Source: a virus
Length of the DNA stretch: 64,000 bases
Virus record (IMG/VR): IMGVR_UViG_3300019880_000001
Location: 1-64,000 of that record
Strand: one strand, 5' to 3'
Part shown: positions 53,980-59,182 of the stretch, piece after piece
Position numbering within the stretch: the stretch's first letter is position 1
Layout of the letters: each line of letters begins with the position of its first letter
The notes under the pieces: model-generated
Databases searched by the model: none
Told to the model about the DNA's origin: nothing
Seen by the model: only the letters and a program-made list of their open reading frames with translations
Translations under genes and position numbers: made by a program

Positions 53980-55728
53980 TCATCCGAGCTCCTCGGGCAA
54001 TCGAAGCTCTCCGCGCCCTTCGACCAGCTCCAGCGTTCGCATTCGAGACAGGTAGGTCGAGAACGTTCCACTGCGATGAGAGATACCCGCCGCTTCGCCG
54101 AGTTGTTCGTTCGTCAGGCTTCTTGGGTAGACTTCGGCGAGCGCCGCCAGCATTCGACTAGCCCCGCCGCCGAGCTCGTGAAGCCAATACCGCAACAACT
54201 CGCGGCCTTCCGGTAGCGGCTCGAAGTTTCCCAGTGCCTCGCGTCCAAGTGCCGTCAGCGAGCGCGTGTCTCCTTGATCGGCGATCCAACCCTCCGAGCG
54301 CCCGCGCGAGAGATACGTTGAGAAAGTCCCTGAGCGTGACGAGAGCCCTGCTCGAACGCCGAGTTGACGGTTCGTCAGACCCGGCCGTTGAGCGAGAGCG
54401 ATCATCATACGCCTCAGGCCGCCGCCAACGGTAGACGCACCGGAGTACGGTTTCGCTGCACTGCCGTTCGTTTTCGTCACGAGGTTCTTTGCGGCTTCGT
54501 GTTCCACGCGCGCAGTGACCGGCGGAGGTTGTGCCTTCGCGAGTTGACTGGAGTTTCTCGGCAACGCCCTACGGGCTTTGGCCTCGGCTGTTTTCACCAG
54601 CGCGTTCGCGCCGGAGATCGCACCGGACAAACTGCTCAACACCATACGGGCCTGGTCGAGCGCCGGCATGATAGCCACGATCGCCGCGACCGTTTCTGCG
54701 TCCGTAGTCGGAACTTGAATGATCTTCGCGGGACCCGACGGGCCGGGCGATGGCGTCTTCTTCAGTGTTTTTTCGTACTCTACGATCTGTTTGCCCAACT
54801 CGATGATCCGCCTGCGAAGCTCCTTCGGGTCTTCGGCCTTCGCCCGCTCGACGACGTCGGCCATCGCCGCGGTGAGCCCCTTCAAGTCGATCGGCGTCAG
54901 CTTCTTTTGCTTGAATGCTTTCCCGCCGACCTTCGGCGTCGCCGACGTATCGAGCGTCTCGATCGGAAGGATGCGTACGATCTTCGAGATCTTGAGCCAC
55001 TGCGGGCTCCACACATACGGGGCTCCTACCTCGAGCGTCGGGAGGACGTCCGCCAGCTTTCCCTCGAACCCCTTGTCGCTCAACCAGTACTGGAGCGCTT
55101 TTCGTTCGTGAGGACCGTTCATTTGAAATGCGAACACGCACTCGGCCTGGTTGAGCGCTTTCTTAGAGATCTCCTGAGGCCGCTGCGAGATGAAGCTGAT
55201 CCCAACACCGTGCGGGCGCCCCTGCTTCGCGAGCCGTTGAAACTCGTGAAGCATTTGCTCTTCTCCGCGTTGGCAATTCTCTGGAACGAAATCTTGGCAC
55301 TCCTCGAGCACCAGATGTACGGCGCCGGGCGCCGCCTTCTTTCGTTGGAAAAAGCGACGAGCGAAAGCCGTCGCGAACCGGGTGCGTTCGGCGTCGAGCA
55401 TTTGGCTCACGTCGAGCACTACGCTGATGCCGCGATCGACGATCAAGTTGGCTACGAGCTCGCCAGCGGCGGGCTCTAGCGGAATGTCCCCGTGCAGGCC
55501 GCCGAACACTGGGATCTTGAATGCCTTCGGACCGAGACGGAGGCCCGCCCATCCACCGGACCCGTCCAAGACCACGACCTGCGCCTTGGCACGCAGCATT
55601 TGCTCGACCATGCGCTTGCACCCGAACGTCTTCCCCGATCCGGTTCTGCCGAGGTACGCGAGCTTTTGCGTGACCGCATCGAGCGGAAGCGCGAGTGTAC
55701 TGGAGATTCGAAGCGTGCTTGCTCTCAT
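53980..55728 (-). CDS. HerA/FtsK-superfamily (DUF87-like) P-loop ATPase with tandem C-terminal wHTH domains
   Basis: LGRTGSGKT, LVLEECQ, KQGRPHGVG..ISQRPQ; two LTN.QLG..AG.S.RSGTFSTYLSR repeats. Confidence 0.85.
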   Translation of the reverse strand: MRASTLRISSTLALPLDAVTQKLAYLGRTGSGKTFGCKRMVEQMLRAKAQVVVLDGSGGWAGLRLGPKAFKIPVFGGLHGDIPLEPAAGELVANLIVDRGISVVLDVSQMLDAERTRFATAFARRFFQRKKAAPGAVHLVLEECQDFVPENCQRGEEQMLHEFQRLAKQGRPHGVGISFISQRPQEISKKALNQAECVFAFQMNGPHERKALQYWLSDKGFEGKLADVLPTLEVGAPYVWSPQWLKISKIVRILPIETLDTSATPKVGGKAFKQKKLTPIDLKGLTAAMADVVERAKAEDPKELRRRIIELGKQIVEYEKTLKKTPSPGPSGPAKIIQVPTTDAETVAAIVAIMPALDQARMVLSSLSGAISGANALVKTAEAKARRALPRNSSQLAKAQPPPVTARVEHEAAKNLVTKTNGSAAKPYSGASTVGGGLRRMMIALAQRPGLTNRQLGVRAGLSSRSGTFSTYLSRGRSEGWIADQGDTRSLTALGREALGNFEPLPEGRELLRYWLHELGGGASRMLAALAEVYPRSLTNEQLGEAAGISHRSGTFSTYLSRMRTLELVEGRGELRLPEELG

Positions 55729-56114
55729 CAACGACTCCTTCACGTCACAGGTTCTTCGCGCGTGCGATCCACGACCCATCGCACATCGGCTACGCTGACG
55801 CCGGCGAGCGCGATCAGCGACGGTGAGTAGAGATCGCCACCGACGAGCTGCCAGATCCGACGCTCTTGGTAGAGCACCGTGCCGTACTGCGAATGCTCGC
55901 CGGTATCCCAACCCTTCGCGAAGAAGAGCCGCATGGCCCACTTGAACGCGGTGCTCACCGGGAAGCCTCGAGCATGTACCAGATCAACTGGACGCTGCCG
56001 ACAGCACCGGACTTCGTCGAGAATTCAATGTACGGCGCGCCGTTAGCTCCCGCCACGACGTAGGCGACGATGACACCGTCGTCTTGCAGGCGCTTCAGGA
56101 TTCGTTCGAAGATC

Positions 56115-56402
56115 TCAATCATCGTCGAGCTCCGGTTCGTAGAAGATCTTCGTGACGGGACACTTCGCTGCGCGCGCGCGAGCCTTGTGGAATTGAACGC
56201 CACACTTCTTCGACGTCGCCTCCTTAGGCGCGCAAGGTTGCCCCGGAAGCGCGAGACACGTCTTGCACGAGTAGGACATCACGCGAACGACGTACTGCGC
56301 GAAAGTCTCCTTGTTCTTGTCGAGCCTCCGCTTCATTTCTTGCGAGGGTTCGAACGTCACTGCACGTTCGACGCAGCGGAGGAAGACGGAAGTGTCGTTC
56401 AT
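56115..56402 (-). CDS. small Zn-finger protein
   Basis: CKTCLALPGQPC...FHKAR. Confidence 0.55.
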   Translation of the reverse strand: MNDTSVFLRCVERAVTFEPSQEMKRRLDKNKETFAQYVVRVMSYSCKTCLALPGQPCAPKEATSKKCGVQFHKARARAAKCPVTKIFYEPELDDD

Positions 56403-57469
56403 CGTTTCGGCCCCCGAGCAATAGCCTCGTCGATCAGCCCGCGCGCAGCAGACTCTTCGATGAGGCCGGCACGGCGGATGTACCCGCGCATTTGTTTCAC
56501 CGACTGGTGCCCCGTCGCTTCCATGATGTCTGCCTCGGGGCGCCCCATCCTGTGCGCTGTGGAGATGAACCCGCTGCGCAGCGAGTGGCCTCCAAAGTCG
56601 GCCGGATCGAGCCCGAGCCGTTTCACGTAGTGCTGCACGCGTTTCGCGACACCTTCGGGGGCGAGGCCGGCTTCCGAGACCTTTCCGGTGTTGATGTCAA
56701 CCCCCCTGAACATTGGCCCCGTTTCGATCTTCGAAAGGTCGAGCCAACGCCGTAGAGCGCGCACGGCGCAGTACCGCTCGTCGGCGGCGGGCGTCAGCGC
56801 AACGACGAGCCCCTTGCCGGTCTGATCGGCCTTGCTGCGGGGGATGCGCCACCGAATGCCCCCCTCGACGTCCTCGAAGTGCTCGACGCGCGCGGCGGTG
56901 ATCTCGCTCCGCCGCCGACCGCCGCCCTGCCAACCGACGAGTAGCATCGCGCGATCTCTAACGCCGCGAAGGTCGTCGCTTATCAAGTCGCACACCCGAA
57001 GCAGCAACGCCTCTCCGTGTGCGCCTAGATCGCGCTTCTGCTTTTTCGGCGCGGTTCCCTTCGTTCGCGCCAGCGTGTCACGTGTCGACTCGATAAGTGG
57101 GTGCTTCCAGATACTTGCGTGCCCGGCTTTCTGATTGCTCCGGCAGATCGCTGCGAGGGCACGCATCAACGCACTGTGGCCGAGCGGCCCCTTCACCTTG
57201 CCGCTCGGTACGTCCTCGGGGGAACGCCCACGCTCGGCGAGCTCTTGCAGGTAGATCCGAACGACGCGGGGCTCGGCCGGCGTCGGGCGAAGGCCGTGGC
57301 GAGCGCACCAGGAGGCAAAGCAGGCCAGATCGAGCTCGTAGGCTCTCCTGGTGTTCGCGGGGACCGCGGCATCGGCCGCCTCCTCCGCTCGCGCGTCGAG
57401 CGCGAGAAGCTCGCTTTGCGCTTCTGTGAGCTCGTGCTCGGTAGTTTTGGTTATCTGGTTATCAGCCAC
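56399..57469 (-). CDS. tyrosine recombinase, Cre-like
   Basis: NTRRAY..D...F..WC; RDRAMLLVG..RRSEI; SKADQ; GHSLRSGF; TGH.S..M..Y (R-K-H-R-H-Y). Confidence 0.93.
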   Translation of the reverse strand: MADNQITKTTEHELTEAQSELLALDARAEEAADAAVPANTRRAYELDLACFASWCARHGLRPTPAEPRVVRIYLQELAERGRSPEDVPSGKVKGPLGHSALMRALAAICRSNQKAGHASIWKHPLIESTRDTLARTKGTAPKKQKRDLGAHGEALLLRVCDLISDDLRGVRDRAMLLVGWQGGGRRRSEITAARVEHFEDVEGGIRWRIPRSKADQTGKGLVVALTPAADERYCAVRALRRWLDLSKIETGPMFRGVDINTGKVSEAGLAPEGVAKRVQHYVKRLGLDPADFGGHSLRSGFISTAHRMGRPEADIMEATGHQSVKQMRGYIRRAGLIEESAARGLIDEAIARGPKR

Positions 57470-57476
57470 GCGAAGC

Positions 57477-57510
57477 CCCGTACGTGAGAACCAGGCTTAT
57501 CACGTACGGG
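57477..57510. promoter_or_regulatory. lox/dif-like recombination site (14-6-14 or 13-8-13 inverted repeat)
   Basis: cccgtacgtgagaa-ccaggc-ttatcacgtacggg, arms 13/14 complementary, 7 nt upstream of the recombinase start. Confidence 0.7.
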
Positions 57511-57691
57511 TTTCGGACGTCCAGCGTCCTCCAAATCGGGCCCATACAGGCCGATTACACACGCGCGTCGCGCAGGGACCCCGGTTCTTCACACGGCCCG
57601 GACATGGCGTTTACGTGGCGTCGACACGGTGTTTTACACGGACCGTCCGGTGTCACCCCCTAGGACACGTCCCCCGGTGTACCCTCTGGGC

Positions 57692-59182
57692 ATGGCCGAT
57701 CAGCTCGTGCTCGCGTGGACCGTCGACGTCACTAACACCACTCTCGGCCCCGCGGCGGCTGCGACAGCGCTCGGAGCGGTGCCTCTCTACCTGAACGCGA
57801 CCACCGACCCGGTGCTCGGGCAAATGTTCGGCCTCACCGTCGCCAGCGACGTCGTCAGTACGCCCGGAGGGGCCATCGCGAAGCGCACGCTGACGCTAAA
57901 CATGACGCACGCACACACGCCGACTGCACCGCCCCCATTCCCGTGCAGCCCACGCACCACGACGCCGCCCGTACTCCCGTACCCGCTGCGCTCGACGAAG
58001 ACGCTCCCCGGTTCGTTCTTCGTCACGCAGGGATCGACGGCCGTTCCGACGACGATGACGCAGCTTCCTTCGCTCTCCACCGGCGACAGCATCCAGTTTC
58101 TCTCTCAGCCAGGCGTCTTCTACACGGTCGCAGGCGGATCGACGGCGACTGCGATCAACATCACGGCGCCGTACACCGGCACGACAGGCAACACCGGCGC
58201 CTTCAAAGAAATCTCAGACCCCGTTTCGATCGCGGCGATCTATTCGACCTCGGATCTCGACACCGCCGGCGTCGCGACCGTCCCTGCAATCCCAGCGGGC
58301 TCTGGAGCCCGAACGGTAGCCATCACGTACACGGACTCGACCGGAGCCACAGGCCGAGCCGCGACTGCTTCGCTCACCGGCAGACGCCCGGCCGCTATCG
58401 CGTTCACGAACGGGAACGGCATCATCAGCGCGATCGAAAACATCGCCATCGCAACCACCGGCGCGTTCCACAACAACATCGGCGAGATCACGATCGTCGA
58501 ACTCTCGAGCGCGCTCCCCGCAATCCCCGCGAACGCAACGCCCGGCACCGGTGTCGGCGCGGGGCAAGGGGATCGCACGTTCTTCGTGCTCACCGACGAG
58601 GCGCAGATGCTCATCACGCGCTCGCTCGCGTACTTGCCTCCGAGCTACTTTGCGCTCGCACAGCAAGGGGCGAGCAACCCGCAACGTCGGGGCGACTTCA
58701 TCGTCACGACGGGCTCGAAGAACGTACCCACGACGATCGATCAGACGGACGCGCTAGGTGTCAGCGCCGTCATTCGATTCGCCTCTCAGCCGGACAAGGA
58801 CTACACGGTCGCGCAAGTAACCGCGAAGATCGTGACGCTCACCGAAGAGTACACGGGCATCGACGACAACTTCACGGGCCCCAAGAACGTCGGAACGAAC
58901 AGCAACAACGGGACGATGGGCAACATTGGGACCGAGGTCATCAACAAGAAGACCGGCGCGATCCTTATCACCCCGTCAGCGGCGGCAGAACCGACGCACG
59001 ATCAACTCGCGGGGCTGATGGCACAGTTCGTCCAAACCGCGACCGCCGCGCCCCCGTTGAACCCGCCGCTCACCCCCTCGACGATCCCAGCGCCCACATT
59101 CTTGAGCGGGCTCTTCACGCGCCAGCTCCAGCTCGCGATTGCCGGAGTGCCGGTCGTACCCCAAACGATCACGTTCCTCTAA
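57692..59182 (+). CDS. Thr-rich beta-structured virion/adhesin-like protein with internal duplication
   Basis: F.VT.GS..VPTT..Q...L.....I.F.SQP...YTVA......I....YTG occurs twice. Confidence 0.7.
   Translation: MADQLVLAWTVDVTNTTLGPAAAATALGAVPLYLNATTDPVLGQMFGLTVASDVVSTPGGAIAKRTLTLNMTHAHTPTAPPPFPCSPRTTTPPVLPYPLRSTKTLPGSFFVTQGSTAVPTTMTQLPSLSTGDSIQFLSQPGVFYTVAGGSTATAINITAPYTGTTGNTGAFKEISDPVSIAAIYSTSDLDTAGVATVPAIPAGSGARTVAITYTDSTGATGRAATASLTGRRPAAIAFTNGNGIISAIENIAIATTGAFHNNIGEITIVELSSALPAIPANATPGTGVGAGQGDRTFFVLTDEAQMLITRSLAYLPPSYFALAQQGASNPQRRGDFIVTTGSKNVPTTIDQTDALGVSAVIRFASQPDKDYTVAQVTAKIVTLTEEYTGIDDNFTGPKNVGTNSNNGTMGNIGTEVINKKTGAILITPSAAAEPTHDQLAGLMAQFVQTATAAPPLNPPLTPSTIPAPTFLSGLFTRQLQLAIAGVPVVPQTITFL

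Follow-up and report, generated by a model that had tools for sequence, protein, structure and literature searches.

Within the window analysed here – a 64,000-nucleotide (nt) stretch forming the first part (positions 1 to 64,000) of the 83,913-bp IMG/VR record IMGVR_UViG_3300019880_000001, an uncultivated soil virus of about 84 kb with about 62% G+C – a gene for a Cre-type tyrosine recombinase lies directly downstream of a short palindrome resembling lox and dif sites. The main features of this locus, in window coordinates and with sequences read in the sense of the recombinase gene, are as follows.

56399-57469, minus strand: Cre-type tyrosine recombinase gene, an open reading frame (ORF) of 356 amino acids (aa) with a GTG start.
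57450-57463, minus strand: tandem motif GATAACCAGATAAC, possible accessory half-sites, overlapping codons 3-7 (D-N-Q-I-T).
57477-57510, no strand assigned: 34-bp lox/dif-like core site, CCCGTACGTGATAA GCCTGG TTCTCACGTACGGG, of the same build in 31/31 distinct relatives, one copy per genome.
57477-57490, minus strand: gene-proximal arm, TTCTCACGTACGGG, with a conserved asymmetry, GAGAA against GATAA.
57491-57496, minus strand: asymmetric 6-bp centre, GCCTGG, the presumed strand-exchange region, shared in a supported recombinase clade.
57497-57510, minus strand: gene-distal arm, CCCGTACGTGATAA, whose GATAAG (57496-57501) is a -10-like element.
57518-57524, minus strand: CTGGAC/TTGAC box, a putative -35, 16 nt upstream of GATAAG, a spacing kept in nearly all 31 loci.
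57692-59182, plus strand: divergent neighbour of 496-517 aa, of no known family, with a 41-71% identical homologue lying divergently upstream in about 30 loci.

An earlier, sequence-only reading of this DNA had placed a 34-bp palindrome with one arm mismatch at 57477-57510, 7 nt before the GTG, and this description is exact. On the plus strand the element reads CCCGTACGTGAGAA CCAGGC TTATCACGTACGGG, and the 7-nt gap to the start codon occupies 57470-57476. A repeat finder (I12) parses it as two 14-nt arms, 93% complementary and 6 nt apart (14-6-14), with 13-8-13 as an alternative parse; the inner 11 nt of both arms are perfectly complementary, the sole mismatch being G/T at arm position 12. Within the window, the arm CCCGTACGTGA is found only in this site. 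The palindrome alone is only moderately unusual – tight hairpins with perfect arms of at least 10 nt number about 8 in the 83.9-kb genome, against a simulated mean of 3.8 (first-order Markov model, overlaps counted) – and the case for a real site is instead made by conservation: in 31/31 related loci the gene is preceded by a site of this build, which occurs nowhere else in 363 kb.

The GTG start of the recombinase is backed by homologues starting MSDNQITK or VADNQITK. In Pfam, the protein scores just above the cut-off for the phage-integrase catalytic domain PF00589 (33.3 bits against 27.1) and otherwise gives only a weak SAM-like N-terminal match, while PHROG integrase families match at about 2e-15. 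Among solved structures, Cre is the top match of the sequence by itself (E 0.01, residues 50-334), and a profile of 28 homologues likewise puts Cre best (E 3e-14, positions 50-342 against Cre 50-334), XerD matching over the C-terminal 70 residues only (E 5.6e-12). An AlphaFold (AF2) model built on the homologue alignment (mean predicted local distance difference test score 78) returns from Foldseek a list whose first 31 matches are all Cre or Tre (E 4e-11, template-modelling score 0.46-0.52), followed by XerA, XerH and IntI near 1e-5, with lambda Int in 50th place (E about 2e-3).

Across the 28 homologues, R186, K213, H295, R298 and Y330 are invariant and H321 is nearly so; together they align with Cre R173, K201, H289, R292, Y324 and, for H321, W315. 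This catalytic R-K-H-R-(H/W)-Y set in the C-terminal domain places the protein in the tyrosine recombinase superfamily; its resemblance to Cre, in sequence as in fold, extends over the whole protein, with the helical N-terminal DNA-clamp domain included, and puts it among the Cre-type enzymes. Orthology to XerC or XerD is not indicated by NCBIfam (XerC 25.8 bits against 335.15, XerD 21.7 against 329.6, PRK00283 subfamily 29.7 against 279), nor is the protein a lambda-type integrase, as Pfam detects no N-terminal arm-binding domain and the site is a simple palindrome. The label 'Cre-like', already proposed in the sequence-only reading, is justified at the level of sequence profile and modelled fold – by the profile E value of 3e-14 and by the Cre and Tre structures that fill the first 31 Foldseek places – at an identity to Cre of about 20%.

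More than 100 metagenome proteins are 60-78% identical to the recombinase, many of them encoded on contigs of 60-137 kb. For the analysis of the site, 17 IMG/VR loci – a single-sequence search for close relatives there came back empty and an alignment-based one succeeded – and 80 metagenome loci were fetched, which deduplication reduced to 31 distinct loci, the window included, with recombinases 52-78% identical, plus one at 36%. All 31 carry the site upstream of the gene and in constant orientation, as a 12-nt arm ending (T)GATAA, a centre of 6 or 7 nt and an arm starting TTMTC (TT(A/C)TC). The sequence-only reading had named a palindrome not conserved beside homologous recombinases as one ground for its refutation; the palindrome is conserved in every distinct locus. 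Scoring of every position in the related DNA (363 kb, with the complete 84-kb genome among it) gave 40 matches of at least 19, all of them at the site location: 37 are the sites themselves, and the other three, an arm-like sequence, belong to one trio of near-identical loci, where they lie at the beginning of the gene. Five whole virus records, four with a rating of 100% complete, were also searched for the pattern and contain just one site apiece.

In the left (gene-distal) arm, TGATAA is nearly invariant, with T at arm position 10 in 30 of the 31 sites; at the same position of the right (gene-proximal) arm, 14 sites have G and 17 have T, and the resulting GAGAA is the one arm mismatch noticed earlier. 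A centre of GCCTGG, GCCTCG or GCCTTG is common to a supported recombinase clade, the sister clade having the 7-bp GGTATNG. By centre length the loci group together on the recombinase tree (4 changes, where shuffles give 10.1), as is expected of linked traits, and this is not proof of co-adaptation. A Cre-type site has two inverted half-sites of about 13 bp around an asymmetric spacer, 8 bp in the known members, and lies near the gene; the site at 57477-57510 fits this description as 13-8-13 with one asymmetry, and the sister clade, with its odd total length (12-7-12), departs from the known members. The distance from site to start codon is about 0-18 nt in 24 loci and 189-261 nt in the other seven. 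The 31 loci thus share with XerS/difSL the arrangement of a single recombinase gene with its site – a likeness of arrangement only, not homology to XerS – and recombinase and site would form a self-contained single-recombinase module.

Similar upstream sites accompany distant homologues of 32-36% identity: CGCGATAA-N7-TTATCG in Xanthomonas chromosomes and GACGCGAGAA-N6-TTATCGCGTC in a metagenome-assembled genome (MAG). The Xanthomonas loci suggest that the site-plus-gene module may be a general trait of this Cre-like clade. Many Xanthomonadaceae chromosomes hold homologues of 31-34% identity, and in two of them (L027/L028) a site of the same build, TACTCGCGATAA GTGATGA TTATCGTGGCTA, stands about 20 nt upstream of the match. 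Orphan sites were also sought, by searching IMG/VR with GTGATAAGCCTNGTTCTC; of the seven matches, the two at known loci are true palindromes and the rest are chance occurrences in low-GC phages.

Beyond conservation, the two arms of a site vary together. Of the 7 outer positions, the arms of one site agree on average at 4.94 and arms combined from different sites at 3.73; none of 10,000 permutations attained the observed value (p<1e-4), and positions 2, 5 and 6 contribute most. Such symmetry cannot come from descent alone and requires selection for two like arms, as expected if one protein binds both. It also bears on the idea that the palindrome is a chance inverted repeat without function: although perfect tight hairpins of 10-11 nt arise a few times per 84 kb of simulated sequence, the keeping of position, build and orientation in 31 distinct relatives, together with the covarying arms, effectively rules this out and leaves it a negligible probability.

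A different question is whether the palindrome serves expression rather than recombination. It is solely the conserved TTGAC/TGGAC box that leads us to propose that the site probably overlaps the recombinase gene's own promoter. In this arrangement the GATAAG of the gene-distal arm would be the -10-like element, the site would span the -10, the expected transcription start and a short leader, and the bound recombinase would thereby repress its own gene. The autoregulation suggested by the sequence-only reading gains support from this -35-like box, which is conserved at 16 nt from GATAAG. A strict sigma-70 scan of 57300-57800 calls no promoter, the -10 lacking its final T. The authors of the XerS/difSL study speculated on the same arrangement of a site in or next to a promoter (PMC1914069). 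Around the -35-like box itself lies a short palindrome, GGACGTCC (window 57511-57530), and in several relatives the stretch from the box to the left arm contains other short GGAC repeats, inverted or direct.

On a purely regulatory explanation, the palindrome would not be recombined at all, serving instead as a leader hairpin (RNA or DNA) that controls expression or as an operator bound by the recombinase or by some other protein. Its overlap with the putative promoter and its position 7 nt from the start codon speak for this, as does the folding of the 91-nt region, which as RNA is better than that of shuffled sequences (z -2.33, 5/200 shuffles as good); the downstream GATAAC repeats could, in addition, pair with the right arm in a transcript starting inside the site. 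This last pairing, considered separately, has flanking bases without consistent covariation and is a minor alternative only. Several features are hard to reconcile with a regulatory role alone: the arm-centre-arm build with its asymmetric 6- or 7-nt centre and fixed orientation is the core geometry of tyrosine-recombinase sites and atypical for an operator; mismatched arm pairs are not enriched for G:U compatibility (19/85 sense, 11/85 antisense), which is evidence against an RNA stem; the left arm would be untranscribed if the conserved box is the -35, and no T-run follows the palindrome; the distance from site to start varies from about 0 to 261 nt among relatives; and the conserved active site of the enzyme demands a DNA target, for which the genome offers no other candidate. 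We therefore consider a regulatory element that is never recombined improbable.

The reading we favour is that the palindrome is the cognate recombination site of the adjacent recombinase, to which we would give a probability of roughly 0.8. One recombinase monomer would bind each of the near-identical arms, two sites would synapse as a tetramer, and strand exchange would take place across the asymmetric 6-bp GCCTGG (7 bp in the sister clade). The reaction would serve to reduce multimers of the genome to unit-length circles ahead of packaging or segregation, or else to close incoming DNA into a circle, as P1 Cre/loxP and XerS/difSL do. With odds somewhat better than even, multimer resolution or circularisation is also the role to which the site's single copy, the probably circular genome and the virus's own recombination proteins, encoded in the same genome, would point.

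That the genome is probably circular, or circularly permuted, is suggested by an end overlap of this contig and from the differing contig start points of its relatives. The final 126 nt of the record (nt 83788-83913) are identical to nt 7-132, with an offset of 6 nt, the first 6 nt being different; this looks like an overlap left by the assembly of a genome that is circular or has terminal redundancy. Among relatives of similar size, the recombinase gene varies in position and orientation, as differing contig start points would have it. Contig circularity was one of the checks the sequence-only reading had proposed, and its outcome is divided: the end overlap fits a circular or terminally redundant genome, and the IMG/VR class of the record and the lack of terminal repeats in relatives do not.

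Several points, indeed, weigh against our reading. The record and four of its relatives carry the IMG/VR class 'linear', three related complete records, searched for direct and for inverted terminal repeats, have neither, and the end overlap of this contig is offset by 6 nt. About half of the Cre-type sites predicted by the published pipeline proved active (PMC10250229). Binding and recombination at this site are proposed from its geometry and conservation, and catalysis, the resolution role, the promoter – for which, as noted, the strict scan gives no call – and autoregulation we likewise infer from the sequence. The lack of lysogeny genes is weak evidence, most viral genes having no recognisable family. 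Finally, attP beside int is the commonest phage arrangement, and the PHROG label of the recombinase family is 'integrase'.

These last points belong to the main competing explanation, in which the site is an attP, an option that the sequence-only reading had left open: the viral genome would integrate at a matching lox/dif-like site of its host, as a temperate virus, and be excised by the same simple reaction. In its favour, besides the usual adjacency of integrase genes and attP and the PHROG label, the inner ATAA/TTAT ends resemble dif, the attachment site of other mobile elements. Plasmids with difSL integrate at the chromosomal site, so simple single-recombinase sites can integrate (PMC1914069). 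The evidence from related loci and genomes points the other way. In about 38 related loci there is no host junction; the one long locus without the 517-aa gene has only unknown or virus-like neighbours, and in about 30 loci that viral gene lies divergently across the site, which upholds the earlier observation of viral genes on both sides. Among 185,579 GTDB species genomes (one per prokaryote species, with many soil MAGs), no homologue exceeds 41% identity, the best being a 41% match in Myxococcota MAGs, so that no integrated member of the close family turned up there, and the nearest named relatives are recombinases of 35-39% identity on 2,342 plasmid records. Pfam finds no arm-binding N-terminal domain, and neither a repressor, an excisionase nor a partition protein was recognised among the roughly 76 predicted proteins scanned. 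The near-identical, covarying arms, moreover, point to one viral protein acting on both rather than to mimicry of a host XerC/XerD site. Resolution is preferred over integration because viral genes flank the site, close prokaryotic homologues are lacking, no lysogeny genes are recognised and the named relatives are on plasmids; integration at attP we regard as unlikely. Logan contigs of two probable source runs bridge 57477-57510 without joints or loose ends, although contigs cannot show rare integrated or recombined forms.

Past the right arm, a second motif overlaps the start of the recombinase gene. A GATAAS-CA-GATAAS sequence lies 5-24 nt beyond the arm in 16 of the 31 loci (with at most two mismatches), is single in the genome, where the next best match has three mismatches, and is absent from the 7-nt-centre clade. 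The isoleucine codon 6 that falls within it is ATA in 16/16 genes, against 25/230 isoleucine codons elsewhere in those genes and 5.8% genome-wide; and in five of the seven loci with a distant site (189-261 nt), a copy of the motif stays beside the site, the copy in one of them (L106) containing a stop codon. Because of this codon bias and these site-linked copies, including the one with the stop codon, the tandem motif is, on sequence grounds, constrained as DNA or RNA. As it shares GATAA with the arms, it is a candidate pair of accessory half-sites by analogy with the DR1-DR2 motifs of TnpI. In at least two of the seven distant-site loci (L011:3820-4008; L103, about 1620-1830), a small ORF of about 62 aa lies between site and recombinase; it resembles a ribbon-helix-helix protein (a weak NikA-like match, E 3e-4, below the cut-off) and starts with the same MADKQIT or SDNQIS peptide and GATAAS-CA-GATAAS DNA as the recombinase.

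One may combine these elements into a more ambitious scheme, which as a whole we find doubtful. The core site would be fused to the promoter and joined by two accessory half-sites in the first seven codons; extra recombinase subunits bound at the latter would silence the gene and at the same time act as a topological filter of the TnpI type, through which multimers only are resolved, as an obligatory monomerisation before an FtsK/HerA-type ATPase packages the circular genome; the virus would belong to an undescribed lineage of very large tailless bacterial viruses, and its roughly 30 recombinase–site pairs would serve as orthogonal tools.

As to the rest of the genome, the predicted proteins scanned include a PolA fused to a uracil-DNA glycosylase (UDG)-like domain, an exonuclease, a VapE-like protein, an AAA_24 protein and a PD-(D/E)XK nuclease, with further matches to helicases, a methyltransferase, ThyX and dCMP deaminase. 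The 876-aa polymerase fusion is encoded on the minus strand at record nt 62570-65200 (L018:570-3200), with its UDG-superfamily domain at residues 48-218 and the family A DNA polymerase domain at 483-838. Record nt 82768-83379 (L019:2768-3379), again on the minus strand, code for an intramembrane protease domain of the rhomboid family (PF01694, E 1.4e-22). Proteins of the structural region have no tailed-phage matches in Pfam, PHROG and related scans.

Two genes downstream of the recombinase, at window 53980-55941 on the minus strand, lies the gene for a 653-aa HerA/FtsK-type ATPase with a DUF87, TrwB-like P-loop, labelled 'terminase large subunit' in PHROG (PHROG 2666); it is likely to be the packaging ATPase of a tailless virus. 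A functional link between this ATPase and the recombinase, by analogy with FtsK and Xer, was considered and set aside, since only 4 of about 38 loci have the ATPase within 3 kb and the linkage is not conserved. Immediately downstream of the recombinase, a 95-aa zinc-finger protein (Phage_zn_bind_8; window 56115-56402, minus strand) overlaps the recombinase stop by 4 nt, which suggests translational coupling; its homologues lie downstream of the recombinase in four other loci (L011, L100, L104 and L106). The 517-aa product of the divergent gene has no Pfam, PHROG or NCBIfam match and Atlas scores below 0.9 (the Atlas record starts at residue 22), and it does not look like a replication initiator.

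Among known systems, the closest are the Cre-type pairs: Cre/loxP of P1, Vika/vox and the YR series (Jelicic et al. 2023). With these the present module shares a recombinase for which Cre is best by profile and fold and whose catalytic residues align, and a 34-bp, single-copy site next to the gene that allows a 13-8-13 parse. The vox site also has a 13-8-13 layout with one asymmetry (PMC3553980). Jelicic et al. describe G(T)-A-T(G)-A near the spacer of those Cre-type sites that are active (PMC10250229), and this site has GATA there. The module differs from Cre in an identity of only about 20% and in H321 standing in place of Cre W315, and from P1 in its setting, an uncultivated, apparently tailless soil virus of 84 kb rather than a tailed phage-plasmid. 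It differs from the known Cre-type pairs, too, in the odd 7-nt centre of the sister clade, in the tandem GATAAS motif past the site and in a site set right against the start codon, with an apparent promoter overlap.

XerS/difSL of streptococci and lactococci offers the same economy of parts: a single tyrosine recombinase of 356 aa, an imperfect inverted-repeat site of about 31 bp directly upstream and a proposed role in dimer resolution (PMC1914069). XerS, however, is chromosomal and FtsK-dependent and its site has clearly unequal arms, whereas the arms here are near-symmetric; no NCBIfam Xer model comes near its cut-off, and Cre outscores the Xer proteins. XerC/XerD-dif is matched in an 11-6-11-type geometry, in the inner ATAA/TTAT ends and in the C-terminal domain of XerD; in contrast to that system, there is one recombinase, encoded beside the site on a virus, the arms are symmetric and the equivalog scores lie far below the cut-offs.

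For the tandem motif, the nearest parallel is the IRS of Tn4430, beside the gene for the recombinase TnpI: behind its core, a pair of inverted motifs, come two direct motifs in tandem that share core sequence. These accessory motifs (DR1-DR2) bind extra subunits and impose resolution selectivity (PMC2847244). Here, in 16 of 31 loci, the site is followed by GATAAS-CA-GATAAS, which has GATAA in common with the arms. Its repeats, unlike those of the IRS, stand at a spacing of just 8 nt and extend over the start of the coding sequence, and the 7-nt-centre clade does without them; the two systems are compared by arrangement.

How new is the module, then? The sequence-only reading presented a new recombinase/target pair. 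The conserved pair is real and that reading is borne out on every point open to checking, but the novelty is smaller than was implied, the route to its discovery already having been published: a search for lox-like palindromes beside Cre-type genes is an established pipeline (PMC10250229, PMC3553980). The module is of a familiar kind and the conceptual gain is modest. What is new here, as far as sequence comparison goes, is the conserved TTGAC/TGGAC box with its apparent promoter overlap and the tandem GATAAS-CA-GATAAS motif in the first codons.

A whole lineage of uncultivated viruses from soil and freshwater, 60-137 kb in size, has kept a dedicated Cre-type module. Its conservation suggests circular or multimeric genome forms that need resolution, and so offers a handle on how these viruses replicate and package their DNA. 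The roughly 30 natural, diverged recombinase–site pairs, with covarying arms and two centre lengths, are raw material for orthogonal Cre-type tools and for the study of half-site and spacer specificity, and their conservation should raise the odds of activity above the published figure of about 50% (PMC10250229).

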